In this document: positions 1 through 57,240 of the stretch, piece after piece
How positions within the stretch are numbered: the stretch's first letter is position 1
How the letters are laid out: each line of letters opens with the position of its first letter
Source: Chloroflexota bacterium
GTDB taxonomy: Bacteria > Chloroflexota > UBA6077 > SHYK01
Reading direction: 5' to 3'
NCBI GenBank assembly: GCA_009377635.1
Contig: WHTR01000004.1
Coordinates: 1,682 to 65,681 of the forward strand
Length of the DNA: 64,000 nt
Position numbers and translations under genes: made by a program
Notes under the pieces: model-generated
Seen by the model: the letters and a program-made list of their open reading frames with translations, nothing else
Told to the model about the DNA's origin: nothing
Databases searched by the model: none

Positions 1-1514
1 AGGTAGTACTCCTGGCCGAGGTGCGTGATCTGCTCCTCGCCCATGAGCCAGCGGAGCGTGTTCTTCAGCTTCGTCTGCTGGATGAACAGGTCGTGCTCTG
101 GGTATACGGACGGCGCGTGCTGGGGGCTTTTGAAATAGAAGGAGAGCCATTCCTGGATGCCGTGCATCCCTGCCCGTTGGGCCAGATCCAGCAACAGCGT
201 CAGATCGAGGACCAAGGGCGCCGCCAGGATCGAGTCCCGGCAGAGAAAATCGATCTTGATCTGCATCGGATAGCCAAGCCATCCGAAGATATCGACGTTG
301 TCCCAACCCTCCTTGCTGTCGCCCCGCGGCGGGTAGTAGTTGATCCGGACCTTGTGGTAGAGGTCGCCGTAGAGCGCCGGATACAGCTCCGGCTGTAGGA
401 TGTGCTCCAGCACGCCGAGCTTTGACTCCTCCTTGGTCCGGAAGCTCTCCGGGTCATCCAGAACCTCGCCGTCACGGTTGCCCAGGATGTTGGTCGAGTA
501 CCAGCCGCGAACGCCGAGCATACGCGCCTTCAGCATCGGAGAGATCACCGTTTTCATGAGGGTCTGGCCCGTCTTGAAGTCCTTCCCACAGATCGGCACG
601 ATGCGCTCATTCGCCAGCTCAACCATGGCACGAATGTCAACCGTCAGGTTAGGGGCGCCGTTCGCGAAGGGCATGCCCTCCATCAGCGCCGCATACGCAT
701 AGACCATCGATGGCGCAATGCTCTGGTCGTTGGTGTCGAGGCCGTCCTCGAACGCCTCGAGGTCCAAGTGGACCGGTCCTTCCTCGAGGAAGGCCTCCGT
801 GGACGCACACCAGACCATTACCAGGCGGTCGCATCGGTGCCCGGCCTTGAAGTCCCGGATGTCCTGCCGGATCGCCTCGGCGAGCTCGCGCTTCGTCTTC
901 CCACGCTTGACATTCGGTCCGTCCAGTCTCTTGACGTACTCGTTGCCGAACACGGACGGCATCGGTTCGATGCTCTTGAGGAAGTCCGCGATCGGCTCGA
1001 GGTGCTCGTGGCGATCGAGCACGCCGGCCTTCAGCGCGGCCTCGTAGGCGTTGTCCGGGAAGAGGTCCCAGGCGCCGAACACGAGCTGATCGAGGCCGGC
1101 CAGGGGAACGAAATCCCGGATCAGGGGCGTGCGGTTCTCCGTACGCTTCCCCAGGCGGATCGTGCCCATCTGCGTCACGGAGCCGATGGGTTGTCCGTTG
1201 CCACGCCGGACATGCTCGACGCCGGCAATGAAGGTGGACGCCACGGCACCGAGGCCGACGAGAAGCACGCCGATGCGGCCGTCAGCGGGTGCAATGGCGG
1301 GGGGCGGCGACTCAACGAAGTCCTTCGGTTCCAAGACCAATCCTTTCTCCCGGGCGAGCGACATGAGTCGCTGATGCCAGTGTGCCGGAATACGGCCGGT
1401 GCGGGCCCAGTGCTCGACCGTGCTCTGGCGGCGGCTCAGGTGGCGAGCAAGCATGCTCTGGCCACCGAAGCGGTGAATGATGCGGCGGGCCGGCGAAGGG
1501 TAGCCACCGTTCAT
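1..1514 (-). CDS. ino1: myo-inositol-1-phosphate synthase (archaeal/Thermotoga-type), 3' end off-window, with N-terminal Cro/YdaS-like HTH extension
   Basis: This edge-truncated ORF is missing from the supplied track because it has no stop in the window. My reverse-strand translation reads GRIGVLLVGLGAVASTFIAG...VMVWCASTEAF...GKDFKTGQT...NILGNRDG...GWLGYPMQIKIDFLCRDSILAAPLVLDL, typical of MIPS. An in-frame ATG at 1514 adds about 50 aa (RIIHRFGGQSMLARHLSRRQSTVEHWARTGRIPAHWHQRLMSLAREKGL). The alternative start is ATG 1364. Confidence 0.85.
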   Translation of the reverse strand, partial: MNGGYPSPARRIIHRFGGQSMLARHLSRRQSTVEHWARTGRIPAHWHQRLMSLAREKGLVLEPKDFVESPPPAIAPADGRIGVLLVGLGAVASTFIAGVEHVRRGNGQPIGSVTQMGTIRLGKRTENRTPLIRDFVPLAGLDQLVFGAWDLFPDNAYEAALKAGVLDRHEHLEPIADFLKSIEPMPSVFGNEYVKRLDGPNVKRGKTKRELAEAIRQDIRDFKAGHRCDRLVMVWCASTEAFLEEGPVHLDLEAFEDGLDTNDQSIAPSMVYAYAALMEGMPFANGAPNLTVDIRAMVELANERIVPICGKDFKTGQTLMKTVISPMLKARMLGVRGWYSTNILGNRDGEVLDDPESFRTKEESKLGVLEHILQPELYPALYGDLYHKVRINYYPPRGDSKEGWDNVDIFGWLGYPMQIKIDFLCRDSILAAPLVLDLTLLLDLAQRAGMHGIQEWLSFYFKSPQHAPSVYPEHDLFIQQTKLKNTLRWLMGEEQITHLGQEYY

Positions 1515-3841: not shown

Positions 3842-5213
3842 TTGTGCGCCTCCTCTGGAGTGTTGAGCTTAGGACTTTGGTCGCGCCGGCTCGAAAAATC
3901 GGGCAGCATTCTCTCCGAGGCTGCCGAGCCCAGCCCTTCCCGCTGACGAGCTCGGCCCAGTGGCGATAGAAGTTGCGCTGGCAGGTGTCGCTGAAGAAGG
4001 GGCCGACGCGACCGGGCAGGTCCGCGTTCCGCTCCTCCTCGTGGCCGAGGCCCATCTGGTAGTTGAGGGGTACCCGACGGCAGGCGACGCCCCTGCTGTT
4101 CTGAGTGGCCTGCATCCAGTTGTCGGCGTCATCCTGCTCCCACGTGCCCCCCGGCGAAAAGCGCCGGAGACAGTGGAGTCGGATCGCCTCGCGCACTTCT
4201 GGGGGAGCGGACCGCTCTACCAAACACCACGCCCACACCTCCATCTTGTCCGGCCCCTTCGGGTGCCACACCCGGAGCGTCCGCGTGCCAAACAGAAACG
4301 AGAGCGTCGGGAACACCGTGCCGTGAACAGGGGCCATCATGCGCGCCCGCACGCGGCCGAGTCGTCGCTCGGTCTCGGGCAGGATCGACTCATAGTAGTC
4401 GGCGATTGTTGGGATGCTGCCGACGCGACCATCGCCGTCGGGCCACCAGCCGCTTCCCAGTCCATGCCCGCCAGGCAGCGCGATTTGGTAGCCCCTTTGG
4501 GCTCCGGTGTAGCCTGGCCCACTACTCTGGCCGCCTCCTCCGAAGCCCACCTGGAACGCCGAGGCATGCGTCAGCCCCCCGTGATACATGTCGCCGACGA
4601 AATTCTCTGCCGCGAGCTTCCAGTTCGCGCTCACCACCCACTTCTGAACCGGGCCGATCACCTCGGTGCCGCCGTCCTGCCGATCGAGCATGATATCGAG
4701 GTACCAGGCCATGTCGCCAAGATAGTCGATGAGCGACGGCGCATCAGGGTCGAGGTTGCCGAGAATCAGCCCCTTATAAGTCTCGACGCGTGGCACCGCA
4801 ATGAGCCCCCACGCGTCCCTGTCGAGCTCCTCGAACCAGAACTCCTTATAGGACGGAACGCCCATCAGCTTGCCCTCGTTGGAGTAGGACCAGCCGTGGT
4901 ACGTGCAGGTGAAGTTCGTCGTGCGGCCGGCATCGAGGCGGCATACGCGGTTGCCGCGGTGGCGACAGGTATTGAGGAACGCGCGAGCCGCGCCATCCGC
5001 GCCGCGCACCACGATCCCCGAATCCTCGCCCATGTAGGTGGTGAAAAAGTCGCCGGGCTGCTCGAGCTGACTCTCGTGCGCCAGGTACAGCCACGCATGG
5101 GCGAAGACCCGCTCCTGCTCCAGCTCATAGAGCATCGGATCGGAGAACACACGTCGATCCATGAGTCCGTTCTCGACATCGACCAGGCTTTGGACGTCCG
5201 TCGCTACCATCAT
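3456..5213 (-). CDS. aromatic ring-hydroxylating (Rieske) oxygenase alpha subunit; 3' end probably frameshifted
   Basis: Rieske motif CRHRGNRVC...CTYHGWSY, followed by a catalytic domain up to ...QRNFYRHWAELVSGK. After about aa 428 the frame becomes Arg-rich nonsense and overlaps the cupin gene by ~385 nt. The +1 frame gives ...GLGSLGENAARFFEPARPKS and stops at 3869, which is the natural spacing before the cupin RBS. Confidence 0.8.
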   Translation of the reverse strand: MMVATDVQSLVDVENGLMDRRVFSDPMLYELEQERVFAHAWLYLAHESQLEQPGDFFTTYMGEDSGIVVRGADGAARAFLNTCRHRGNRVCRLDAGRTTNFTCTYHGWSYSNEGKLMGVPSYKEFWFEELDRDAWGLIAVPRVETYKGLILGNLDPDAPSLIDYLGDMAWYLDIMLDRQDGGTEVIGPVQKWVVSANWKLAAENFVGDMYHGGLTHASAFQVGFGGGGQSSGPGYTGAQRGYQIALPGGHGLGSGWWPDGDGRVGSIPTIADYYESILPETERRLGRVRARMMAPVHGTVFPTLSFLFGTRTLRVWHPKGPDKMEVWAWCLVERSAPPEVREAIRLHCLRRFSPGGTWEQDDADNWMQATQNSRGVACRRVPLNYQMGLGHEEERNADLPGRVGPFFSDTCQRNFYRHWAELVSGKGWARQPRRECCPIFRAGATKVLSSTLQRRRTIGTDSSRKDRWRADARGAGLRRRGGNDGRSRVRLVRQRLVRGLRRPAFDDAQPRRRPPVPLPQAGHRHDGHDLGLRARRPLRHARWVTDERTGRRDRAYRAGRGRHVPAGAAARGARVPGHQRSRRAR

Positions 5214-41172: not shown

Positions 41173-41517
41173 CTACCTTCCGGGCCTGAATCGCTCCGCC
41201 AACATCTCCGACGGAGCGACGTGGAGCTGATTCTCCACGCTGCGCACCCTGCTCACAGACCAGATGTCGTTCTCCGCCGCCTCGCGCTCGAGCGAACTGA
41301 GCACCGCGCCGGAGATCCGGACCGCACCCCTGTCGCCGACGTGCACGGCGACCTTCGAGCCGTCCACCGGCGGATCCTTCTCCAGCACAACCTTGATGGC
41401 CTCGGCGAGCGTCTCGTTGCTGTCAGGCTCCGGGTGCACGATCTCCAGCTGGCGATTGTCGAATCGCGGCGCGGCCAGCGCTCGCCTCGTCAGCTCGTCG
41501 TCATCGCGCTTCATCAT
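41173..41517 (-). CDS. BON domain protein
   Basis: LAEAIKVVLEKDPPVDGSKVAVHVGDRGAVRISGAVLSSLEREAAENDIWSVSRVRSVENQLHV is a single BON domain. Confidence 0.75.
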   Translation of the reverse strand: MMKRDDDELTRRALAAPRFDNRQLEIVHPEPDSNETLAEAIKVVLEKDPPVDGSKVAVHVGDRGAVRISGAVLSSLEREAAENDIWSVSRVRSVENQLHVAPSEMLAERFRPGR

Positions 41518-42515
41518 GGCCCCTGACGTTCGTACGGGATACGCCGGAGCTCTCCGCCCTCGCGGTCGCTCGCCCGCAGTGGCGATCGCCCGAGGATCCG
41601 CAGGCTATCCATCACGGTGCGGACTCCCGACACGCGGGCTGCGATGGCCAGCGCGGCGTCGTGATCTTCGATGCTGTCGACTCCGCCACCAAGAACGACC
41701 ACGCCGTCAGATGCAGATGGCACCACCTGGGACGGACTCACGCGCCCGTCGTCATGAAAGGCTTGGACGATACGCCCGACGAGAGCTTCATCTGGGTCGC
41801 GACTGGCGGAGCTCGCCTGCAGTGCGAGCCCGTTGCGAATACGCTGGAGACCCGGCACGTCCTGGGCGGCCCGTGTCGCCCGCTGGAGAGCTCGAGGGTC
41901 GGCCACCAGGCCGTGGAGATAGGCCCTGCCATCCCGGACGTAGCTTTCATTCTGATAGATCGTGACTCCGGCGTCCTCGATCGCGGCGTTGACCTCGCTG
42001 AGGAGCGCGGCATCGTCGACGATCGGGAATGGGCTATCGGTCGGGTCGATCTGGCCGACCCTGATGGCGCTGATCACGTCACGTACACCTTCGGCCCTCT
42101 CAGCGCCGCGCACCGCTGCGCGCTCCTCCGCCAGGCGGTTCACCCGCCCGACGAGCGTGACCACGCCGGTCTGGATCACAACACCCACGTCATGAAGCGA
42201 GACGCGCGGCTCGGCGGCAAGCCTCTCCCGCACGCGCTCAGCCAGCTCGTCGTCGGTCACGTATTGTCCTACGGCGACAGCCATGCGATTGTCGACGCGC
42301 CGGACGCCCGTGGCCCACTTGGTCAGGTGCTCGGCTCGGTGACGCTCGTACGGGGTGTGGACAGTTCCCAACAGTGTGATGCCGCCGCCCTCCAGGATGA
42401 CCCGGAGATCGTCGCTCTTGATCTGGCTATCACGAGCCAGCGTCGCTAGCACGCGCCCTCTCAGCTCGGCGTCCTCGATCTGACGCGAGTAACCATGGCT
42501 GAAGGCTTTGCTCAT
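41514..42515 (-). CDS. multi-BON-domain protein (about four repeats)
   Basis: GGGAG RBS before ATG 42515. Repeated units of the form D.ELa.rV...L......v....V.V...GvVtL.G.V......r.aA......GV..V.n.l. ATGA overlap with the next BON gene. Confidence 0.8.
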   Translation of the reverse strand: MSKAFSHGYSRQIEDAELRGRVLATLARDSQIKSDDLRVILEGGGITLLGTVHTPYERHRAEHLTKWATGVRRVDNRMAVAVGQYVTDDELAERVRERLAAEPRVSLHDVGVVIQTGVVTLVGRVNRLAEERAAVRGAERAEGVRDVISAIRVGQIDPTDSPFPIVDDAALLSEVNAAIEDAGVTIYQNESYVRDGRAYLHGLVADPRALQRATRAAQDVPGLQRIRNGLALQASSASRDPDEALVGRIVQAFHDDGRVSPSQVVPSASDGVVVLGGGVDSIEDHDAALAIAARVSGVRTVMDSLRILGRSPLRASDREGGELRRIPYERQGP

Positions 42516-43078
42516 GATCCGACTCCCGTGTAGGTTCACCCGATCGGAGGGCTGGGCATGAGATCCCGAAGTCCTGCGCACCCGACTGGCGGCGATGGGC
42601 AAGCTCTCGGCCCGTAGTACAACTCGGCTGAGGCCGTCGGCGGCCTTACACGTGCCGCCTTTCGACCACTTCGCCCTGGCGTGGGCTTCGCGCTTTGATG
42701 TTTCCAGCGCGTATCCCTACCCAACGTGACTACCCTGCGATGCCCCGGGCGGGCCAGTTGGTACACCGGAGGTTGCTCCACCCCGGTCCGCTCGCACGTG
42801 AAGTGGCTCCCCGACGCTTATCGCAGCCAGGCACGTCCTTCATCGGCTCCACGCGTCAAGGCATCCAGCGTGTGCCTTTTGTAGATTGCAGACATCAATC
42901 CCGGCAGCATGGAGATGTGCGGGTCTTCGGTTGTTCAGCTGCCGGCCCCTGCGGATCACGGGGGCCCGGGCCACCGGTCGGCCCTGATTAACCCTAACAC
43001 CATCCGAAAAAGCGCGTCCAGCTCCGGCCGTTGCAATCCGGCAGGATGTCGGTAAACGCGCGGCGAATAACACCATCT

Positions 43079-44191
43079 CTACAGATAGTCCACGACCGCG
43101 TAGACGAAGCGGTACAGTTGGGCCACTTCCAGTGCCGTCTGCCAGGTCATCTCGTCCGCGACGTGCGCGTGCTGAATCATCTCCGTTAAGAGGAATCTTC
43201 CAACCTGGCCTTCCAGCAGTGCACGCTCCAGCTCGACCGACTCCGTGTATGGGACATAGGGGTCGGTTCGGTCGTGCAGGACGAAGACCTCCGCGCGCAG
43301 CGTTCCGAGATGAGCGGCGGGGCTGAGCCGCTGGAGCGCCTGGCGCTCAGCGGGCGGGATGGCGCCCAGGCGCGACTGCGCCTCCTCACGCGTCGGCGCC
43401 TCCAGGACCGCGGCCGACGCCGCTAGGCCCATCGCCCGGAGTACCGCGTCGGCCTGGCGCACAGCATCCTGACTCGGCTGCCAGGCGATAGCCTCTCCGT
43501 CGAGATGGGTGCTGTGCGTGGCGAGGCTCTGGAGATACGCGACAGTATCGTAGTAGCCACCGAGGGACACGACGGCGCGGACGCGGTCGGCGACGCCTGG
43601 ATTGCTCGCCGCGACCAGGGCGATCGACGCGCCCATCGAGATCCCGACGATGGAGATCCGTTCGCGGTCAACCGCGGGCAAGCCCTCGAGGTAACCGATG
43701 CTCGCGACGAACGTCCCCGGGTCCTCAGGAATCGATGCCCCAGCGTCCAGTGCGGTGCTTCTCGGCCAGAGCACGACGTACCCGAGTCGCGCCAGACTGT
43801 CGGCGAAGCGCAAGAGCATCGGACGGTCTCTCTCGGGCAGCCACACCCCAAGGGCAATAATCACCGCCGGCCGTGAGTCCGCCGACGCTTCGTCGCGGGC
43901 GTCGGACGCTCCGAACAGATCGCCGACGACCGGTCCGTGCTCCGCAAGAAAGCGAACGTGCTGCTGCGACGGCTCCGCGGAAAGCGCGTGCAACGGCTTG
44001 ACCGGCACCTGGGGCAGCTCCTGGGAGAGCAGGAGCCAGACTTTTGCATGCACAACGAGAGGATTGAGAAGAACGATCAGCACCACCGGGAGCAGCAGGA
44101 ACATCGGCGACGGTGCCGGCCGCTTCCACCGCACGTTCCACGACCTCCGTCCGAAGGCAAGGCCATTTTTCAATCGGCAGTGCGCGCCCAC
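43079..44191 (-). CDS. membrane-anchored alpha/beta hydrolase (dienelactone hydrolase/peptidase S9-like)
   Basis: N-terminal TM helix (MFLLLPVVLIVLL), nucleophile elbow GISMGAS, and HDRTDPYVP...H near the C-terminus. The start is uncertain (44191 or about 44104). Confidence 0.7.
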   Translation of the reverse strand: MGAHCRLKNGLAFGRRSWNVRWKRPAPSPMFLLLPVVLIVLLNPLVVHAKVWLLLSQELPQVPVKPLHALSAEPSQQHVRFLAEHGPVVGDLFGASDARDEASADSRPAVIIALGVWLPERDRPMLLRFADSLARLGYVVLWPRSTALDAGASIPEDPGTFVASIGYLEGLPAVDRERISIVGISMGASIALVAASNPGVADRVRAVVSLGGYYDTVAYLQSLATHSTHLDGEAIAWQPSQDAVRQADAVLRAMGLAASAAVLEAPTREEAQSRLGAIPPAERQALQRLSPAAHLGTLRAEVFVLHDRTDPYVPYTESVELERALLEGQVGRFLLTEMIQHAHVADEMTWQTALEVAQLYRFVYAVVDYL

Positions 44192-48390: not shown

Positions 48391-50883
48391 TCAGTGAGCG
48401 TCAACCAATGCCCGCTCGGCTGCCTCGGTCGCGTCACGGTACGTTGTCCCTTTGGGAAGCGTGAGCGGTTCGCCAACGATCAGACGGACAGTTCCAGGCT
48501 TGTTCGGCAAGTAGGGGAACGACTGATCGCGAGGGAAGAGCCGGTGATAATGCTCGAGCTTGAATGGAACGATCGGCACACGCATCTCAACGGCCATGAG
48601 CCCAGTGCCGTTCAGAAACGGACGTAGGGCGCCGTCGAGTTCGGGTTCCCCCTCCGGGCTGATGATGACGGCGTACCCGTCGTCGAGCCATCGCCCGAGC
48701 TCCTCGAGTCCGGCGAGGGCTGTTCCGCCGCTCTTCGCGAACGAAAACGCCTGAGCGGCGAGTGCTGCTAGCAGACCCTGCCACCGGTCCCGGCCTTTCC
48801 AGATACGTGGGTCGACGGCGACAGCGACGCGGGACCGGACGTGGGCCGGCAGGGCCCGCAGCAGGACGAGGGGCGCGTACGGCCCTTGATAATTGAAGAT
48901 CACCAGGGACGGCACCGGGAGCGACGCCGCCCGGTCGGGGTGCACGACGTCCAGGCGCATCCATCGGTCCTGCAGCCGAAACGCGATCCAGAGCAGCGCG
49001 GACCCGATCATCCTGGCCCACCACGTGCGAGGCCAGCGCGGCGGAGCCTTGATCTCCCTGCTCGTCGATCCGGCGGCGACGAGGGCGCGGAGCTCTGCGA
49101 TGGTCGTTTGAGGACCCACCGCCAGCTCGTCGACGACACGCCCCATCTCCTCTTCGATCGCGGCGAGGAGCTCTATCCGGCCGATTGAGTCGAGCCCGAG
49201 ATCACCTTCGAGCTCGGCGCCGTCCCGAACATCGTCGGACGGCCGCTCGGCCGCGCGCGCAATCACAGCGATCAGCGGGTCGCCGGGGGGACCGGGCCGT
49301 CCCGGCCTTTCGCCGACCACTGCCGCGCGGTCTCTCTCGACTGCTTCGCGCACGGATACGCGGTCGACTTTGAGTGTCGCCGTCCGGGGAAAATCGGCTT
49401 CCTGCCAGATCGTGTATCCGCGAATCTGCTGGTGTGCTGCCAGCCGCCGATTCGACTCCCGGATGATCTCGTCTGCCCGCTCGGGTGCCGTCGTGAGCAG
49501 TGCGGCATAAACTGCCTCCCCGTCATTCCGCTCGACCCCGACGACGCAGCTCTCTCTCACCAGCGGATGAAGGTTGAGGGTTTGTTCGACGTCTTCTGGG
49601 TAGACGTTACGCCCGTCCGGCAGCACGATCTTGAATGCGGCCCGCCCGGAGATGCGCAGGAAGCCGTCAGCGTCGAGCGAGCCAATATCGCCGGTCTGCA
49701 GCCACCCGTCGACAAACGAACGGCTCGTGAGCTCCTCGTTGCCGAAGTAGCCCGGGCTCACCGTCGGGCCGCGAATGAGGATCTCTCCATCCCCGGAGAT
49801 CCTCACGTCGACACCCGGAATGGGTTGTCCGACGGTCCCCAGCCGCTGGGCGCGCCAGCTGTTGATCGTGCTCGCAGCGCTCGTCTCGGTAAGGCCGTAT
49901 CCCTCGAGGATGTGCACGCCCATGCGCTGCCACGCGGCCGCGACCTTGAGATCCAGCGGCGCCCCACCCGACCCGAAGAACTCGAGGTGGCCGCCCAGCG
50001 CGCGATGCACGCGTCCGAAAAGCACGCGGCGGAGCGGGAACGGAATCCGCTCAGCGACCGCGTGTGCCGAAGTCCAGAGTGCCTCGTTCTCCTCACGCGC
50101 ACGCCGCTCGATCCCGGTCAGCAGCATGCGGAGTAGCTGGGGGACCAGGATGAGGCAGGTCGTGCCCTCCTCTCGCAGTGCTCGCGAGATAGTCACGGCG
50201 TTGACGCTCGGCACATGGGTCATCCGTACCCCGAAGGTGTACGCGAGCAGGAGATCGATGATCTGCTCCAGGGCATGGCTGAGCGGCAGGACAGAGAGGG
50301 CACGGTATGAGCGCTTCAGTGGGAATGCCTGTCGCATCGCCGCGATCTCTGCCAGGAAGTTGCCGTGCGTCAACATGACACCTTTGGGCACCCCGGTTGT
50401 GCCCGACGTGAAAGCAATTTCGCAAAGGCTCTGCGAGGGTATGTCGGGGACTGAGGCCAGCGGCCGCATGTCGGCGACGAGATCGAGCAGATCCTCGAGG
50501 TCGAATGTCTCGGCCACGGGCGGGCCAAAGCGGCCCGCGAGGTGTCGCGACTTGAACGCCATGCGTGGCTCGGCCGCCGCCACGAAGCGGTCGAGGATCT
50601 CCTGACCGGTCCGGACGTCAATCGGCACGACGACGACGCCGGCCGTCCACGCGCCAAAGTAGAGCATGGCGTACTCCGGCATGTTCGGCGACCAGACCAC
50701 GAGACGCTCGCCTGCCGTGATGCCGCGGGCGTTCAACCAGGCCGCGACCCGCCGAGCTCCGTCGCCTGCCGCCCGGAAGGTGTAGCGTTCGAGCCGAAGC
50801 CCGCGCCGGACCTGAAACGCTACGTCGTCCGCGAACTGCTCTGACGCGGCGCCGACAAGCTCACCTAGATTGCGATACGTCAA
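48391..50883 (-). CDS. tri-domain protein: acyl-AMP/CoA ligase + carrier-protein domain + LPLAT (PlsC-like) acyltransferase domain
   Basis: AMP-binding motifs (FTSGTTGVPKGVMLTHGNF, GYGLTE, TGDIG), the phosphopantetheine site LGLDSIGRIEL, and a C-terminal acyltransferase-like region with IISPEGEP. The HX4D box reads NYQGPYA. Confidence 0.8.
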   Translation of the reverse strand: MTYRNLGELVGAASEQFADDVAFQVRRGLRLERYTFRAAGDGARRVAAWLNARGITAGERLVVWSPNMPEYAMLYFGAWTAGVVVVPIDVRTGQEILDRFVAAAEPRMAFKSRHLAGRFGPPVAETFDLEDLLDLVADMRPLASVPDIPSQSLCEIAFTSGTTGVPKGVMLTHGNFLAEIAAMRQAFPLKRSYRALSVLPLSHALEQIIDLLLAYTFGVRMTHVPSVNAVTISRALREEGTTCLILVPQLLRMLLTGIERRAREENEALWTSAHAVAERIPFPLRRVLFGRVHRALGGHLEFFGSGGAPLDLKVAAAWQRMGVHILEGYGLTETSAASTINSWRAQRLGTVGQPIPGVDVRISGDGEILIRGPTVSPGYFGNEELTSRSFVDGWLQTGDIGSLDADGFLRISGRAAFKIVLPDGRNVYPEDVEQTLNLHPLVRESCVVGVERNDGEAVYAALLTTAPERADEIIRESNRRLAAHQQIRGYTIWQEADFPRTATLKVDRVSVREAVERDRAAVVGERPGRPGPPGDPLIAVIARAAERPSDDVRDGAELEGDLGLDSIGRIELLAAIEEEMGRVVDELAVGPQTTIAELRALVAAGSTSREIKAPPRWPRTWWARMIGSALLWIAFRLQDRWMRLDVVHPDRAASLPVPSLVIFNYQGPYAPLVLLRALPAHVRSRVAVAVDPRIWKGRDRWQGLLAALAAQAFSFAKSGGTALAGLEELGRWLDDGYAVIISPEGEPELDGALRPFLNGTGLMAVEMRVPIVPFKLEHYHRLFPRDQSFPYLPNKPGTVRLIVGEPLTLPKGTTYRDATEAAERALVDAH

Positions 50884-50967
50884 TTCCCGGTTCTCGTCGT
50901 GTGAGTCCTCCAGTCAGATCCGCAGCTGCGACGCGGTACGTCACCTTCGCGCTCTCTAGGACGGCGC

Positions 50968-51417
50968 CTACGCGGCGGCTTTGATCTGGATCTTGCGCGG
51001 TCGCACCTCCTCGGCCTTTGGCATATGCAGGGTCAGGACTCCGTTCTCGAAACGCGCTTCGGCGCGCTCGCTCTGCACGACCGTCGGGAGCATAATCTGC
51101 CGCCCAAACTTCCCGTAGCGTCGCTCCCGTCGGTAGAAGTTCTCCTCGCTCACGTCTCGTTCCATCTTCGTCTCGCCCTTGATGGAAAGCGAGTTGCCTT
51201 GGATCGACACGTCGATGTCCTCTGGCTTGACGCCCGGCACGGGGGCCGTCACCACGACCTCGTCGTCGGTCTCATACACGTCGACCGAGAGCGGTCGCTC
51301 AATCTCGCCGGCTAACGGGGCCATCGGGCGTACCCAGGCGTCTTCGAGAAGCCGGTTCATCATCTGGCGCGCAGTCATGAAGCTTTCAAACGGGTCCCAA
51401 CGAACGATGTCCGCCAT
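50968..51417 (-). CDS. Hsp20/alpha-crystallin small heat-shock protein
   Basis: GGGAGGG RBS before ATG 51417. WDPFESF..., alpha-crystallin core VDVYETDDEVVVTAPVPGVKPEDIDVSIQGNSLSIKGE...AEARFENGVLTLHMPK. Confidence 0.9.
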   Translation of the reverse strand: MADIVRWDPFESFMTARQMMNRLLEDAWVRPMAPLAGEIERPLSVDVYETDDEVVVTAPVPGVKPEDIDVSIQGNSLSIKGETKMERDVSEENFYRRERRYGKFGRQIMLPTVVQSERAEARFENGVLTLHMPKAEEVRPRKIQIKAAA

Positions 51418-51525
51418 GGTCGTCCCTCCCGACTGGCTTCTTCGCCGAGTTGCCGGCGGTGTGTTGGTCGAGTTCCGTACATCCCAGAATATGCGGCCGC
51501 GAGGTAGACAGGCCTGTGGAAAACC

Positions 51526-51568
51526 GTGAACGGTGAGTGAACGCGTAGAACACCGGTCAGTCGTGAAC
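51526..51568 (-). promoter_or_regulatory. cluster of GTTCAC repeats upstream of hsp20 (core GTTCAC-N5-GTTCAC)
   Basis: The plus strand has GTGAAC at 51526, 51537 and 51563, and GTAGAAC at 51545. They are sense-oriented for hsp20, 109-151 nt upstream of its ATG. Confidence 0.4.
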
Positions 51569-51635
51569 ATCGCCACTCGACGTGCGTCCGGTCCTGCCGG
51601 TCTCCAGCCTAGCCCGTTCGAGCTTCGAGCACCGC

Positions 51636-52595
51636 CTACCGGTGGAACCGGGGCAGGATCTCGCGCTCGCAGAATCGGAAGAAGCCCTCCTGGTCGGGGC
51701 CGATCTGGTGGATCCCGACGTGATCGAACCCGGCCTTGGCGAACTCGTCGATCGCCGCGGCATAGGGCTCCGGGTCGGGCCCGCAGACGACGGCCTCTGT
51801 GACGTCCGCCTCACGCACCAACGCGGCGGCCTCCTCCACCAGGGAGGGCAGACGCAGCTCTGAGAAGAGCCCCCCGGTGAGCCCCGCAAGCGGCCAGTAC
51901 TCGAACGCACGTCGCCGTGCCTCGGCTTCGTCCTGCGCCCAGCAGACATGAATCTGACCGTAGCATGGCTTGCCAGCTCCTCCGGCCGCCTCGAACCACC
52001 GGACCATCTCCGCGCTCGGCGCGTTGCTCATGGCGCCGTCGCCGAGCCGACCCGCCGTCTCTGCGCTGCGCCGTCCACTAGCGGCCACAACGACCGGCGG
52101 CAGCCGCTCGGGCAGATCGTAGATACGAGCCTCCTGGACCGTGAAGTGCTCGCCGTAGTGGCTGCGTTTGCCACCCTGCCAGAGCATGCGGATCACATCG
52201 ATTGCTTCCTCGAGCATCTCACGGCGCACCGAGGGCTCCGGCCATTGCTCGCCGAGGATGTGCTCGTTGAGGCTCTCGCCGGCGCCGAGGCCGAGGAAGA
52301 AGCGGTCCGGCAGGAGAGCCGCGGCTGTGGCACCCGCCTGGGCGATGATCGCCGGGTGGATGCGCATCGTCGGGCATGTCACTGCCGTGCCCAAGCGCAG
52401 CCGGCTCGTCGCCTGCGCGATACCGCCGAGCACGGCCCAGACAAACGGCGCGTGCCCCTGGCGGTCGATCCACGGATGAAAGTGGTCGGAGATTAGGGCA
52501 AACGGAAATCCGACCTCCTCCGCCCGCCGCGCGTTCCGGACGAGGTCGGCTGGCGCGTGCTCCTCACTTGAGAGCCAGTAGCCGAGCTCGACCAT
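51636..52595 (-). CDS. luciferase-like (LLM-class) F420-dependent oxidoreductase, G6PD-related subgroup
   Basis: GAGGAGG RBS. MVELGYWLSSEEH...ISDHFHPW...GLGAGESLNEH fits the TIM-barrel LLM family. Confidence 0.75.
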   Translation of the reverse strand: MVELGYWLSSEEHAPADLVRNARRAEEVGFPFALISDHFHPWIDRQGHAPFVWAVLGGIAQATSRLRLGTAVTCPTMRIHPAIIAQAGATAAALLPDRFFLGLGAGESLNEHILGEQWPEPSVRREMLEEAIDVIRMLWQGGKRSHYGEHFTVQEARIYDLPERLPPVVVAASGRRSAETAGRLGDGAMSNAPSAEMVRWFEAAGGAGKPCYGQIHVCWAQDEAEARRRAFEYWPLAGLTGGLFSELRLPSLVEEAAALVREADVTEAVVCGPDPEPYAAAIDEFAKAGFDHVGIHQIGPDQEGFFRFCEREILPRFHR

Positions 52596-52721
52596 CAAAC
52601 GCCTCCTCTCGCCACTCGGCCGCATGTACCCGTCCTTCCCTCGTCCGCCTCAAGGGGAAGAGGCCGGCGCCGCTCTGCGGCGCCGGGTGAGGATGCACCT
52701 CATTAGCCCGCAAACCACCTG

Positions 52722-53429
52722 TCATGACCTCTTCCCCTCCGTTGCCTTCTCCGTCGAACGCTGGAGGACGTCGTCGCGGCGGAACAGGCCGACGAGCTCA
52801 CCATCGCTCGTCGTCACGAGGATATTCGACACGCCACGCTCCGCCAGGTACTCGGCTGTCTCCTTCGCGGGCTCATTTGGTCGGTAGGCGATCGGGCCCG
52901 GCTCCATAACGAGTTGAGCGCTGAGCTCCGGGTCGGCCTCCAGTCCGTCCTTGCGCAGCCGTCCGAGCACGACGTTGCGTTCGTTGACGACGACGCAGGT
53001 GTCCGCGCCGAGTCTTCGGACACGCTCCTGCACGTCGCCGATCGGGTCGTCGGGCATACACGTCGGGACGTCACGGCGCGCTATATCACCGATGCGGGGC
53101 ACCGACGCGAGCGTGCCTTCAGTCGGCAGCCCGGAGGCAGACCAATCCGCCTTGCCCGCCACATATCGATAGACCTGTGTGAATCCGAGACTCTCGAGCC
53201 GCCACGCGGCCCGTGCGCTCAGGTCTCACTGGTAGTCCTGGCAATATACGACCACGGGAACGTCACGTCGAAACTCAGCTCCAGATTCGCCGTCCATCCG
53301 CGTGAGCGGCATGTTGATGGCTCCCGGCAGGTGCTCGTCATCGTACTCCTGCCGCGGCAGCACCTCAATGAGCTGTGCCCCGGATCGGGCGAGCTCGCGC
53401 AGATCGTTGCGATCGATTGCAGTAGGCAT
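52722..53429 (-). CDS. rhodanese domain + CBS-pair protein with an in-frame TGA (codon 68) in the rhodanese active-site loop
   Basis: GGGAGG RBS before ATG 53429. The two track ORFs (53226-53750 and 52722-53162) are in the same frame and separated only by the TGA at 53226-53228: ...HLPGAINMPL...VPVVVYCQDYQ[TGA]DLSARAAWRLESLGFTQVYRYVAGKADWSASGLPTEG, followed by a CBS pair. Confidence 0.6.
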
Positions 53430-53586
53430 GCGTCCCGCCTCCCTCACTCCCCGGACTCCACCACCGGCACGGCGCCAGGCAATGATCTCCTGCTCACTCC
53501 CGAGGATGTTCCTACGCACGTTGTAGGCTCTTATCATAGACGGCGAGGCAACGTGCTCCGTTGTGCTAAGCCGTGCGAGCCCGGCA

Positions 53587-54033
53587 CTAGATTGCTTCCG
53601 GGAGCTGTCCTTCCGCCATGCGCTTGAATCGCCGTAGGTCCACGTCCAGCATCTGATCCACGTTCTGCGCGAGGTGCGCGACTGCCTCGCCCACGAAGCC
53701 CCCGGGCGCATCGAACCACTGCAGAATGACATGGACCAGCGTCTGACCACCCACCTCCGAGAACGTTACGTTGCCCGAGGTTCCGATCTGACTTCGACCG
53801 TCGATGGAACGCCAGCCGATGGAGCGGCTCGGCTCGTCCTCGCACGTCTCAGCGTCGAACTCGACCTGTGTTCCCATCGGTCCTCGGATCTTCCAGTGCG
53901 ACTCGCGACCATTCAGCTTTCGAACGTCGAGTACGTGCTCCATGAAGTTCGGGAAGTGCTCGAAATCGGACCACAACTCGTACGCCTGATTCGGAGAAAC
54001 AGCCACGCGCACTGATCGTTCAACGCGCTGCAT
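53587..54033 (-). CDS. SRPBCC (polyketide cyclase/dehydrase-like) family protein
   Basis: VERSVRVAVSPNQAYELWSDFEHFPNFMEHV...W.I.GP.G and following sequence is the typical SRPBCC pattern. Confidence 0.75.
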   Translation of the reverse strand: MQRVERSVRVAVSPNQAYELWSDFEHFPNFMEHVLDVRKLNGRESHWKIRGPMGTQVEFDAETCEDEPSRSIGWRSIDGRSQIGTSGNVTFSEVGGQTLVHVILQWFDAPGGFVGEAVAHLAQNVDQMLDVDLRRFKRMAEGQLPEAI

Positions 54034-54288
54034 CGCCCCGCTCCATGTTCTCGAATTGCCCGCTTACAACTATGCGGCGCAGCGGTTGAGGGGCTCGTGG
54101 CTGGGCGTGAACGGAGCGTTACGGCTGCCTCCCGCGCACGGTGCCCAATCGCGAATCGTGAACCGACCGATGCCGCGGCTCAGCTCTCCTCGGCTCACGA
54201 CGATGGTTGACGCTGCTGAGACGCTTCTCAACCGGGGCGGACACCTGGCGCTGAGAGACTTTCGTAGCCTGCGGTGGAGGAGCTGACG

Positions 54289-54783
54289 ATGCGGATGGTC
54301 TGGCGGAGAATCTCACGTCGACGCGCAGTTGCCGTGCCATCACTTCTAGCAGCTGGCGTTATCGGCGCGGGACTCGCATATCTCCTGGATCCCGATCATG
54401 GACGCAGGCGGCGGGCCATCGTACGCGACCGGCTGACCGCCGCGGCGCGCCGTGGCGCTCGCCAGTCGGGGCGGTGGGGTCGATATACGGCATCGACCGT
54501 TTCCGGGTGGAGCCTGAAAGCGGCCCGGCTCGGTCGCGTCGAGACCGAGCCGGTAAACGACCTGACCCTGTCGCACCGCGTGGAGAGCGAGCTGTTTCGG
54601 GATTCAAGGGTTCCCAAGGGACAGATCAACGTCAACGCCGAGCAAGGCGTCATCGTGTTGCGCGGAGCGCTTGATCGGCCAGAGCAGATTCGGGGAGTCG
54701 AGGAGCGCGTGCGCCGCGTTCTCGGCGTCGTTGACGTCGACAACCAGCTTCATCTGATCAACACGCCAGCCCCGAACGGCTGA
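54289..54783 (+). CDS. membrane-anchored BON domain protein
   Basis: GGAGGAG RBS 6 nt before ATG 54289. TM helix (AVAVPSLLAAGVIGAGLAYLL), then C-terminal BON (LSHRVESELFRDSRVPKGQINVNAEQGVIVLRGALDRPEQIRGVEERVRRVLGVVDVDNQLHL). Confidence 0.8.
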   Translation: MRMVWRRISRRRAVAVPSLLAAGVIGAGLAYLLDPDHGRRRRAIVRDRLTAAARRGARQSGRWGRYTASTVSGWSLKAARLGRVETEPVNDLTLSHRVESELFRDSRVPKGQINVNAEQGVIVLRGALDRPEQIRGVEERVRRVLGVVDVDNQLHLINTPAPNG

Positions 54784-54878
54784 GACACGCTTCTGGTTCC
54801 GATGCAGCGTTCACGCAGACGCCCGACGCTCGGGCCAGGTGACGTTTGGGACAGTCCGACTCAATCATGTGTGGCGTA

Positions 54879-56945
54879 TCAGGCGGCGGGCACGGCCTGC
54901 TCAGCCGAGGCCGCAGCGGCGGACGTCGCCAACGGGAGCTTGACGATGACCGTCGTGCCGTCGCCCTGCTGGCTGTCGATGTGGAACGTGCCCCCGTGCT
55001 GCTGGACGATCTGTCGCGACCCGGAGATCCCCAGTCCGTAGCCGCCGGTCTGTCCAACGACGTTGCCTCCCCGGGAGTATCGGTCGAAGATCGTGGGAAG
55101 ATCGCTCGCCGGAATTCCGACTCCCTCGTCTCGCACGGTCAGCACCGCCCACTGCGTGCTGCTGTCTTCTTGACAGAATACATTGACGGTGACGCAGCCA
55201 CCGTTCGGGCTGTATTTGACCGCATTGGCGAGCACGTTGCGCACCACCCGGTCAAGACGGAGCTGATCCCACTGGCCAATGATGCACACCGATTCAGCCG
55301 CCACGCGTATCTCGTGTCGATCGGTGGTGCATTGTGTGTCCGCGGCGACCTGTCGGGCCAGCGTCACGAGGTCAGTCGGCTGCGGCCGCAGGTCCAGCGT
55401 CCTTCCCACCTCAAGGGCAGCGACATCCAGGAGCTCGTCAAGCTGCGTCGCCATGGCGTGGGCCCGCTCGTGGATGCGGCGCATGTGGACGGCGAGCTGG
55501 TCGGACGATGGATTCGCCTCGCGCTGCAGTTTCAGCTCGAGGACCTGCGTCAAGGCACTCATGCCCGCCAGCGGGTTCTTCAGATCGTGTGTGACGCTCG
55601 CCAGGACCTCATTGCGCAGGCGCAGGGCCGTCTGTGCCTTGCTCAAGAGCCGGGCGTTGTCGATGGCCAGCGCGCAGCGACGGGCCACCTCTTCGGCCAG
55701 TGCCAGATCTCTCGCCGCGTAGCAGCGGCCCGGGTTCCCCCTTGCGAAGGCCATGGCGCCGAACGTCTCCCCGCGCGCCGACAGCGGCACGATCATGGCG
55801 GAGACGCTGCCGAGCCGTTGTAGGAGCCGTGCGTAGTCCGGAAGCACTGGGAATTGTCCAACCTGTTCCGGGTCATCCGTTGAGAAGAGCTGCGACTGCC
55901 CCGTGCGGATCACGTGCACGATGCCACAGGAGGCTTGGGACTCGACGGAAAAGGTTCCCACGCGGCCCTCCACGGCGACCTCATTGCTCGGCTCGACATC
56001 GGCCGCAGCAACGGGCGCTACGGTCCCATCGTCGTGGCACAGCGCAAGCACGCATCGATCGCCTAACGCGGGGATCGCGACGTGGGCCACCTGCTGCAGG
56101 GTGACCTCCTGGTCCAGCGAGGAGTTCAACGTTGCGCCCACGGCCGCCAGGAGCTGCTGGCTGTGTTCCATCCACTTGCGTTCGGTCATGTCGCGGGCAA
56201 CCGCGGAGGCGCCGATGAGCCGCCCATCCGCAGCGCGCAGTGGCGAGACCGTCAGCCACACGTCGATTCGCCGCCCGTCTTTGGCCACCCGTACCGTCTC
56301 GTAGGGTTCCACCCGATGACCGCGTCGAATACGTGCCATGATGGAAGGAAGCTCGTCCGGGCATTCGGGTGGGATCAAGAGGGAGATCGGCCGTCCCACG
56401 GCTTCGTTGGCCGTGTAGCCGTAGAGCCGCTCGGCGCCCCGATTCCAACTCGTGATCACGCCGTCCAGGGTCTTGCCGATAATCGCGTCCTGCGAGGATT
56501 CGACGATGGCCGCGAGATACGCGCGAGCCGCCTCCGCGGATTGGCGTTCGGTGATGTCCACCAAGATGTTCACGGCACCGATGAGATTGCCCTGCGTGTC
56601 GCGGAGGGGGTTAGCGTGGGCGAGGACGGTCGCACGCGTGCCGTCCCTGCGCTCGATGACGATCTCCTGACCGTTGAACTCTCGGTTCTCCCGGAGCGCC
56701 CGCGCCATCCAGCAGCGGTCGTGGCGAATCGGGGTCCCGTCCGTCGCAAAGAGGCGGAAGGAACCACAGAAACGATCCGCAGGATGATTCACCTTCGGCG
56801 ACCGCCCCCACAACTCCACCGCGTGCTGATTGAAATACGTGATCAAGCCGTCGGAATCGCAGGTGTAGGCACCTGCCGGCAGCTTTTCCAGCAGGAGACG
56901 AAGATCCGCTTCGCTGCGGTGGCCGACCAGACCTTCTCCTTGCAT
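54879..56945 (-). CDS. PAS-PAS-GAF sensor histidine kinase (cytoplasmic)
   Basis: AAGGAGAG RBS before ATG 56945. Two PAS/PAC units, a GAF domain, H-box LASVTHDLKNPLAGM, and HATPase N/G boxes (VLANAVKYSP, DEGVGIP, GGYGLGIS). Confidence 0.9.
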   Translation of the reverse strand: MQGEGLVGHRSEADLRLLLEKLPAGAYTCDSDGLITYFNQHAVELWGRSPKVNHPADRFCGSFRLFATDGTPIRHDRCWMARALRENREFNGQEIVIERRDGTRATVLAHANPLRDTQGNLIGAVNILVDITERQSAEAARAYLAAIVESSQDAIIGKTLDGVITSWNRGAERLYGYTANEAVGRPISLLIPPECPDELPSIMARIRRGHRVEPYETVRVAKDGRRIDVWLTVSPLRAADGRLIGASAVARDMTERKWMEHSQQLLAAVGATLNSSLDQEVTLQQVAHVAIPALGDRCVLALCHDDGTVAPVAAADVEPSNEVAVEGRVGTFSVESQASCGIVHVIRTGQSQLFSTDDPEQVGQFPVLPDYARLLQRLGSVSAMIVPLSARGETFGAMAFARGNPGRCYAARDLALAEEVARRCALAIDNARLLSKAQTALRLRNEVLASVTHDLKNPLAGMSALTQVLELKLQREANPSSDQLAVHMRRIHERAHAMATQLDELLDVAALEVGRTLDLRPQPTDLVTLARQVAADTQCTTDRHEIRVAAESVCIIGQWDQLRLDRVVRNVLANAVKYSPNGGCVTVNVFCQEDSSTQWAVLTVRDEGVGIPASDLPTIFDRYSRGGNVVGQTGGYGLGISGSRQIVQQHGGTFHIDSQQGDGTTVIVKLPLATSAAAASAEQAVPAA

Positions 56946-57240
56946 CGTTGCACTCTCCTTCTCATGGAGGAGCCGAAGACTAGGTGGTGCCAGACTCCTC
57001 AACGTGAAGCCCCGAGATGGTCTGCATATAAGTGTAGGGAGGTACCGTCTCCATTTCAACTAGAAGCTGCACGCACGTGCTCACGTGGCGGCAACGACCG
57101 AATCGTTGACACTCGCTGCCATATGTCTGTTACATCGGCCACTAAGACCGAGAAAGCTCCAGTTCGGACAAGGCAGAGGAGCGTTGGGTGCGTCCGCCGA
57201 CCGGTAAGCCCGCGGAATGCGCTGCCTCGTTCGCCACTCC

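Follow-up and report, generated by a model that had tools for sequence, protein, structure and literature searches.

The stretch of DNA analysed here, referred to as the window, is 64,000 nt long and derives from a Chloroflexota bacterium (GenBank assembly GCA_009377635.1, contig WHTR01000004.1). On its minus strand lies a gene for a rhodanese fused to a pair of CBS domains, the frame of which is crossed by a TGA codon that very probably encodes selenocysteine (Sec). An open reading frame (ORF) at 53750..53226 ends at this TGA (53228..53226), and a second ORF at 53162..52722 shares its frame. An earlier, sequence-only reading of the window had reported two ORFs in one frame, parted by the TGA at 53226–53228, with read-through giving a 235-aa rhodanese and CBS-pair protein; the coordinates are confirmed, translation and Pfam bear out the fused product, and the local peptide, VVVYCQDYQ[TGA]DLSARAAWRLESLGF, is exactly as it had been quoted. 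The features of the gene are as follows.

53429..52722, minus strand: full coding sequence of the predicted rhodanese and CBS-pair selenoprotein, 235 codons including UGA-68, followed by the terminal TGA at 52724..52722
53445..53438, minus strand: Shine-Dalgarno-like GAGGGAGG, read from the sequence, 8 nt 5′ of the ATG at 53429..53427
53136..53405, minus strand: rhodanese homology domain (PF00581), residues 9–98
53241..53243, minus strand: TGC codon of Cys63, located where the central beta-strand ends, in the place of the canonical active-site Cys of rhodaneses
53226..53228, minus strand: UGA codon 68, read as Sec, the second position of the C-x4-C/U loop
53195..53213, minus strand: hairpin 5′-CGGGCCGC GUG GCGGCUCG-3′ of the selenocysteine insertion sequence (SECIS) type, encoding R73-A-A-W-R-L-E79, assigned from comparative data and the criteria for bacterial SECIS (bSECIS) elements
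52737..53099, minus strand: CBS domain pair (PF00571), two stretches, about residues 111–231
51636..52625, minus strand: F420-dependent LLM-class oxidoreductase of the TIGR03557 family, after a 96-nt gap 3′ of the Sec gene

The rhodanese domain scores 51.9 bits in Pfam (cut-off 22.2; residues 9–98) and the two CBS stretches 53.8 bits (cut-off 24). The GC fraction at codon positions 1, 2 and 3 is 0.75, 0.39 and 0.70 before the TGA and 0.71, 0.49 and 0.78 after it, and this coding-type pattern is absent 5′ of the ATG. Thus, the composition is that of coding DNA on both sides of the TGA, in line with the earlier statement that the coding signal continues past it. Homologues of 220–240 aa cover 92–100 % of the 235-aa protein. 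Additionally, an independent Logan assembly of run SRR10173838 (locus L175) contains the identical sequence, including the TGA. The NCBI record MPZ13141.1 holds only the downstream 146-aa ORF under the name ‘CBS domain-containing protein’; its annotated GTG start at 53162 is located inside the rhodanese fold and lacks a Shine-Dalgarno site.

A search of 5.8 billion proteins returned more than 2000 homologues. The sequence-only reading had placed a Cys at the column of the TGA in a subgroup of rhodaneses, and the alignment agrees: among 94 full-length homologues, residue 68 is Cys in 70, ‘W’ in 15 and D, S or R in the remainder, while residue 63 is Cys in 73 and Ser, Gly or Ala in the remainder. 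Full-length homologues of 47–60 % identity mostly carry the Cys within the motif YC-x4-C-D-L-S-A-R-A-A-W-R-L-E. The five closest relatives (64–71 % identity) are all ‘CBS-only’ proteins beginning M-S-A-R-A-A-W, two codons past the column. The DNA available for these relatives (L001, L003 and L004) has TGA at the exact column, with synonymous changes nearby (CAG/CAA, TAC/TAT, GCA/GCC), and on the contigs of two further proteins, P0069 and P0079, a ‘Rhodanese’ ORF of 66–67 aa stops 4 nt before an in-frame ‘CBS’ ORF.

Two scans of DNA were used to follow the codon itself. Species genomes in GTDB were scanned with a DNA pattern for the TGA form in which part of the hairpin sequence was fixed by design, and this strict codon pattern is estimated to catch about 80 % of family members. 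A total of 49 TGA-form loci were found, 44 of them with a diverged yet recognizable rhodanese N-terminal half leading in frame into the TGA. According to the labels of the metagenome-assembled genomes (MAGs), these loci span at least five phyla. Those from Chloroflexota belong to Thermomicrobiales, Chloroflexia, Dehalococcoidia and Anaerolineae, those from Actinomycetota to Gaiellales, Acidimicrobiia and Egibacteraceae, and the others to Rokubacteria, Gemmatimonadales, Acidobacteria and one deltaproteobacterium. Metagenome contigs were scanned with fully degenerate codons for x-D-[LMV..]-S-A-R-A-A-W-R-L-[DE] and TGN at the column; across at least 120 loci the codon was TGA in 67, TGC in 40, TGT in 13 and TGG in none. 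Over 100 independent loci, diverged from one another, share a TGA at this column. Substitutions relative to L003 at codon positions 1, 2 and 3 number 18, 15 and 37 before the TGA and 23, 17 and 60 after it, and this excess of third-position differences on both sides indicates purifying selection on both halves. Loci with TGA at the column are referred to below as Sec forms and those with TGC or TGT as Cys forms.

The ‘W’ entries of the protein databases are likely to be Sec forms in disguise. For one of them, P0002, the DNA was read (contig L174:441–1124) and has TGA together with an intact hairpin at the column; translation of this gene with code 11 does not give the stored protein. Since the DNA has TGA, the ‘W’ of P0002 likely stems from a code-4-type translation, in which TGA is Trp. 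A Trp at the column, or the use of code 4, was considered as a candidate and rejected on the same DNA. By extension, the ‘W’ in all 15 of the 94 homologues is probably a mistranslated TGA. Gene calls of the Joint Genome Institute (JGI) either split genes of this family in two or render the TGA as Trp.

The hairpin downstream of the UGA (53213..53195) consists of 8 bp, one of them G.U, closed by a GUG triloop; its stem starts 12 nt and its loop 20 nt past the UGA (53225..53206). Codon usage over this stretch was compared between 58 unique Sec forms and 46 Cys forms of the metagenome sample, with the following result.

Ala74: GCC in 58/58 Sec forms; GCG 19, GCC 12, GCA 10 and GCT 5 in Cys forms
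Ala75: GCG in 58/58 Sec forms; GCA 19, GCC 13, GCG 12 and GCT 2 in Cys forms
Arg77: CGG in 58/58 Sec forms; free in Cys forms
Leu78: CTC in 57/58 Sec forms; free in Cys forms
Arg73, third base: a purine in all Sec forms; free in Cys forms

Four-fold degenerate sites outside the hairpin, for example those of Ala72 and Gly82, do vary in Sec forms. The frozen bases coincide with the hairpin C-G-R-G-C-C-G-C / G-U-G / G-C-G-G-C-U-C-G. The 7-bp core is perfect in 56/56 Sec forms versus 5/46 Cys forms (Fisher p = 2.4e-23), and the 8-bp hairpin with its GUG loop in 101/102 Sec forms and 5/46 Cys forms. The GUG loop, which opens with the wobble position of the Ala75 codon, occurs in 102/102 Sec forms. 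Folding an alignment of 26 diverse Sec forms with RNAalifold yields this 8-bp helix alone, at −14.8 kcal/mol, and the minimum free energy (MFE) of the 27-nt segment is −14.7 ± 1.2 kcal/mol in Sec forms versus −8.5 ± 2.8 kcal/mol in Cys forms. A stem-loop had also been drawn in the sequence-only reading, with CGCAC pairing to GUGGCG around a GGGCCGC loop. That structure is not the conserved one; GGGCCGC forms the 5′ arm of CGGGCCGC-GUG-GCGGCUCG. The earlier register was rejected because both the alignment folding and the codon statistics favour a register shifted 3′. Within the window no second copy of the hairpin motif was found.

In the published bSECIS consensus (model of Zhang & Gladyshev 2005, as summarised in PMC13188914), a loop of 3–9 nt caps a stem of 4–16 bp, at least one of the first two loop bases is G, most often with G or U after it, the loop lies 16–37 nt past the UGA, and the MFE does not exceed −7.5 kcal/mol. 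The hairpin falls within all four of these ranges, with a loop of 3 nt on a stem of 8 bp, the loop sequence GUG, a distance of 20 nt and the MFE given above. As in the bSECIS consensus and in fdhF of Escherichia coli, it is a coding-region stem-loop just 3′ of the UGA with a small loop that carries G then U. The minimal element of E. coli fdhF is a 17-nt upper stem-loop located 11 nt from the UGA; the core of the present hairpin is likewise 17 nt (7 + 3 + 7) and is located 13 nt from the UGA. It differs from known bacterial SECIS elements in having a triloop, in lacking a bulged U and in matching no Rfam model. A further difference is that its sequence is near-invariant across phyla, because an invariant peptide is encoded by the same bases.

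Not all Cys forms lack the hairpin. Of the five that keep the stem, L145 (TGT) and L055 (TGC) have it intact and belong to the same small clade as the Sec forms L116 and L014, whereas in the more distant Cys forms L126 and L167 the hairpin has been lost, and the first Cys with it. The clade in which these four Cys forms were compared takes in the Sec forms L014, L116 and L170. The two pairs look like snapshots of a recent replacement of Sec by Cys followed by decay of the hairpin. A neighbour-joining tree of 113 unique full-length proteins, midpoint-rooted and drawn from a motif-restricted sample in which the genome scan enriched TGA forms, places its 33 Cys forms in two derived groups, and parsimony gives Sec at the root with three changes. 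Sec thus appears to be ancestral in the subfamily, with Cys replacements arising later. In the same tree the protein of the window adjoins forms from Chloroflexia and Thermomicrobiales (L015, L003 and L027). Paired Sec-form paralogues, each with TGA and hairpin, were also observed: L033 and L035 on contig JBFXAN010000003.1, L012 and L030 in one MAG, and L034 and L048 in another.

The pairing of the column with Cys, the conservation of the TGA and the freezing of the hairpin in TGA forms together exclude a one-off mutation or a sequencing error. Of the two options left open by the sequence-only reading, the selenocysteine option has gained the support of all three lines of evidence, and the statement that a nonsense mutation or base-call error was equally possible is ruled out by the comparative data. 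We regard it as highly probable that UGA-68 is decoded as Sec with the help of a genuine SECIS element, giving one selenoprotein of 235 residues. By the standard bacterial mechanism, the hairpin CGGGCCGC-GUG-GCGGCUCG, 12 nt past the UGA, would recruit SelB.GTP.Sec-tRNA(Sec) by means of an apical loop that contains G-U, and this binding would lead to insertion of Sec at the UGA instead of termination. The ribosome would then melt the hairpin and read the invariant start of a helix, R-A-A-W-R-L-E. Given that the hairpin stretch also encodes this peptide, it is under double constraint, at the level of both protein and RNA.

Components of the decoding machinery were found beside one member of the family. 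In L034, a Gaiellaceae MAG, a tRNA-SeC gene with anticodon tca (4520–4611, plus strand) is located 1.2 kb from the Sec-form gene, and the C-terminal half of selB (SelB-wing_3 and Beta-barrel_SelB; 25–906, plus strand) is located 5 kb from it. Among all 175 loci, a tRNA-Sec was found in L034 only, and no SelB-like match was found in the fetched loci apart from L034. The genes lying between these in L034 comprise ORFs that look hydantoinase-like by eye, one for a response regulator and a MarR-like helix-turn-helix gene. Selenoprotein-rich Chloroflexota are on record (PMC13326102). Three other in-frame TGA candidates were flagged in the window, none of them convincing; one is a junction of two genes in the same frame and two have a non-coding look.

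Several observations weigh against the selenoprotein reading or against the interpretations built on it. The 64-kb window contains no tRNA genes and no SelB-like match, and selA, selB, selC and selD were not found in it. The apical loop of 3 nt is the shortest that the bSECIS model allows. Stem variation among Sec forms is confined to A-U/G.U and G-C/G.U wobble changes with no double compensatory substitutions, and the post-UGA segment of the window, folded singly, has a z-score of −1.42 versus shuffled sequences, which is not significant in DNA of 65 % GC. As a consequence of the weak single-sequence fold and the missing compensatory changes, the RNA evidence rests on the freezing of synonymous sites. 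Rfam gave no SECIS or other relevant family, either for the whole window at the gathering threshold or for the locus by E-value. The GTDB scan is biased toward the hairpin, and the metagenome scan, though unbiased with respect to codons, depends on the motif; the rooting and sampling of the tree stated above count in the same direction. No operon partner was found that is conserved enough to settle the function; the largest recurrent sets of neighbours comprise 6–9 Sec-form loci each. This heterogeneity is a further point, as is the fact that the biochemical role proposed below is drawn by analogy from the rhodanese and CBS families.

The alternatives to Sec differ in what they can explain. 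If the gene properly carried TGC or TGT and its TGA were a nonsense mutation, a mark of pseudogene decay or a fault of sequencing or assembly, one base change would be enough; close TGT and TGC forms do exist (L145 and L055 beside L116 and L014), and MPZ13141.1, the NCBI annotation, covers the 146-aa downstream ORF alone. However, the presence of TGA at the same column in more than 100 diverged loci already refutes such a lesion; both halves of the gene are under selection, conservation of the hairpin is confined to TGA forms, the independent assembly (L175) has the same base, and the GTG at 53162 is a poor start, lying within the rhodanese fold with no Shine-Dalgarno site. Next to no credence can be given to this explanation. 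Equally little can be given to a reassigned genetic code with TGA read as Trp or Gly. The W at the column in 15 of the 94 database homologues would be expected under such a code, but the DNA of P0002 has TGA, so that its W is likely not a genuine Trp codon, and 32 of the 67 coding-like ORFs in the window stop at TGA, the Sec gene included, which already refutes a reassigned code for the window. No further in-frame TGA flanked by coding signal was found there.

Were the TGA a true stop, the locus would produce a rhodanese fragment of 67 residues and a separately started CBS protein; the hairpin would then act in coupling their translation or in stabilizing the mRNA. Gene callers do predict a ‘Rhodanese’ ORF of 66–67 aa followed by a ‘CBS’ ORF, and an ATG (Met70) is present two codons past the TGA in 35/58 Sec forms. 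The break would nevertheless fall within the active-site loop of one compact domain in the AlphaFold2 (AF2) model of the Cys homologue P0003, which has a predicted local distance difference test (pLDDT) score of 94, and helix 70–80 and strand 86–89 of that model belong to the rhodanese fold. Moreover, the Cys homologues are uninterrupted and the column pairs specifically with Cys, and in the window itself the Met70 position is Leu (CTG), with the first in-frame start being a GTG at residue 90. This makes a true stop very improbable. A somewhat larger, still slight, chance is left for recoding with an amino acid other than Sec, either through SelB or a SelB-like factor, for example with Cys carried by a tRNA that resembles tRNA(Sec), or by low-level near-cognate read-through (Trp or Cys) with the hairpin slowing termination. 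The inserted amino acid is not distinguishable by sequence analysis, Cys functions at position 68 in many homologues, and SelB-dependent Cys-inserting tRNAs have been proposed bioinformatically in some bacteria. On the other side, ARAGORN finds an ordinary tRNA-SeC (tca) beside the L034 member with selB near, and the hairpin fits the bSECIS model. TGG, which would be expected if Trp were tolerated, is absent among the at least 120 codon-unbiased loci, and a UGA with a frozen hairpin maintained across phyla offers no evident gain over TGC as a means of inserting Cys.

If UGA-68 is indeed decoded as Sec, its position within the rhodanese fold bears on what the residue might do. In the HMMER alignment, Cys63 matches the Cys of 3tp9 (‘vyCRTG--GRS’) and of 3nhv (‘tyCwgpaC’), and the active-site loop exceeds the standard six-residue rhodanese loop by two residues. 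The AF2 model of P0003 (pLDDT 94.2) has a strand at 59–62, a loop at 63–69 and a helix at 70–80. By this model, Sec68 belongs to the active-site loop, five residues after Cys63 and two ahead of the point where the helix begins. A Foldseek search with the model gave 3nhv as the best PDB match (E = 7e-9, root-mean-square deviation 1.3 Å over 108 columns, 28 % identity), and with its C-terminal half gave CBS-pair structures. The closest solved structure is therefore BH2092 of Bacillus halodurans (PDB 3nhv/3o3w), a structural-genomics rhodanese with no assigned function. Its loop aligns to the present one without gaps (TYC-WGPA-C-NG-A-T versus VYC-QDYQ-U-DL-S-A). However, BH2092 has Cys in place of Sec, lacks the CBS pair and gives no guide to the chemistry.

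Judging from the conservation counts for residues 63 and 68, the critical residue is likely to be that at position 68, with position 63 often as its partner. Sec68 may act as the reactive nucleophile, with Cys63 as its partner in a selenenylsulfide or a persulfide relay. As an enzyme, the protein could be a redox-active transferase or reductase of sulfur or chalcogens, under the control of the CBS pair, which in turn may sense an adenosyl ligand. Two further Cys residues, Cys124 (53060..53058, minus strand) and Cys145 (52997..52995, minus strand), are present in 92/94 and 90/94 homologues, respectively. They are located in the motifs DVPTC and C-V-V-V-N, and such conservation is unusual for CBS domains; their retention hints at a further redox or metal site.

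Rhodanese-related selenoproteins had been predicted before, as the sequence-only reading noted. A 2026 catalogue of prokaryotic selenoproteins (Zhang et al. 2026; PMC13188914) contains five rhodanese forms, which are listed here with the motif and the representative accession or model.

Form 1: UxxS, WP_010941598.1 (PMC13188914)
Form 2: UxxG, MBM9537886.1 (PMC13188914)
Form 3: CxU, NF041203 (PMC13188914)
Form 4: UxxG, MCY3690685.1 (PMC13188914)
Form 5: UxxxxU, TsoB, NF045694 (PMC13188914)

Thus, the class exists as had been claimed, but the catalogued forms place Sec elsewhere (UxxG, CxU, UxxxxU). They have in common with the present protein a PF00581 domain, a Sec in or near the active-site loop, the existence of Cys homologues and a SECIS within the coding region. 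Forms 2 and 4 have UxxG, unlike the U-D-L-S found here. Form 3 (NF041203, LYCAU type) has C-x-U where the present loop has C-x4-U, and with a score of 28.3 bits against a cut-off of 115 the protein is not a member of it. The UxxS motif of form 1 is compatible with U-D-L-S. The source of its representative, WP_010941598.1, is presumably Geobacter, judging from the accession series, and no record titled Geobacter was among the hits when GTDB species genomes were scanned for the TGA form; identity with form 1, compared by motif alone, is unlikely. The best-scoring selenoprotein model is that of form 5, TsoB (NF045694), with 31.4 bits over residues 27–109 against a cut-off of 805, and the protein is not a member of this family either. 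The TsoB motif UxxxxU has the same spacing as C63-x4-U68, and the two U of TsoB would presumably align with C63 and U68. TsoB, a rhodanese/DsbD fusion-like selenoprotein for which Haft & Tolstoy 2025 is cited, has two Sec residues, about 570 aa, a DsbD-like part and no CBS pair, whereas the present protein has one Sec, 235 aa and a CBS pair where TsoB has DsbD.

Scored against NCBIfam release 20, which was used for all selenoprotein models above, the protein matches none of them. The combination of a rhodanese, a CBS domain and selenocysteine was not found in the searchable literature, and the term ‘CBS’ is absent from PMC13188914. The protein belongs to the known class of rhodanese selenoproteins and possibly represents an uncatalogued sixth form. 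A broader proposal is that this form is uncatalogued, contained Sec ancestrally and ranks with the commonest selenoproteins of soil lineages that are for the most part aerobic, with a Sec-dependent function in chalcogen or metalloid redox chemistry; this can be put forward tentatively, as an idea that falls somewhat short of being probable. If it is true, the lineages concerned are Chloroflexota, Actinomycetota, Methylomirabilota, Gemmatimonadota and Acidobacteriota. Its SECIS would then owe its fixed sequence across phyla to a double role, as the same bases encode an invariant helix, databases would be hiding the family as truncated ‘CBS domain’ or Trp-containing proteins, and the neighbouring genes (ArsR, MerA, CcdA, ResA-like and F420-dependent LLM) would point to a redox role that has not been described for rhodaneses.

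Recognition of the family would correct many database entries (9 of 120 best hits checked) and would provide a marker selenoprotein for soil Chloroflexota and Actinomycetota, in which the use of Sec is poorly charted. The family also offers a natural experiment, in which one peptide, RAAWRLE, is encoded by frozen codons after UGA and by free codons after UGY, and in which recent Sec-to-Cys converts retain a relic hairpin. For the wider subfamily, which includes BH2092, the second position of the C-x4-C rhodanese loop would be chemically critical besides the canonical Cys. Its abundance in soil lineages, systematic misannotation and clean dual-coding SECIS signature add to its interest.

The genes surrounding the Sec gene in the window, apart from the LLM-class oxidoreductase listed above, are as follows.

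54879–57059: PAS-GAF histidine kinase, on the upstream side
54274–54783, plus strand (divergent): BON-domain protein, on the upstream side
53587–54033: SRPBCC protein, on the upstream side
50968–51576: HSP20, on the downstream side
48391–50883: AMP-binding/carrier/acyltransferase protein, on the downstream side

The Sec gene thus sits in a run of stress-type genes at 48391–57059. The LLM-class oxidoreductase scores 422.8 bits with the NCBIfam model TIGR03557 (cut-off 210.4); a gene of this family is located directly 3′ of the Sec-form gene in L040 (Acidobacteria) and L049 (Chloroflexia, complete chromosome OY970217.1) as well, and is nearby in five more loci. Other neighbours of Sec-form genes include an ArsR/SmtB regulator in 9 loci, CcdA-like and ResA-like thiol-disulfide proteins in 9 loci and a full-length mercuric reductase, MerA, in 6 loci (TIGR02053, 596.9 bits). 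On the contigs of P0069 and P0079, CopZ, MerR, a P-type ATPase and a thioredoxin are encoded near the gene. In a subset of loci (L017, L101, L156, L008, L027, L144 and others) the Sec-form gene is part of a mer-like island, next to full-length MerA, the ArsR/SmtB regulator and the CcdA-like and ResA-like proteins. Overall, the neighbourhoods are too varied to assign a function, but they lean toward thiol, metal or metalloid redox chemistry.

Elsewhere in the window, a stretch of 136 nt on the minus strand (42677–42812) matches positions 2666–2801 of bacterial 23S rRNA with 75–80 bits (E about 1e-22). It is located in the gap between the ORFs at 41514–42602 and 43079–44191. The universally conserved sarcin-ricin loop, AGUACGAGAGGACC, appears in it as CGUGCGAGCGGACC, and the fragment looks like a degenerate rRNA-derived piece or an assembly oddity rather than part of a working rRNA.

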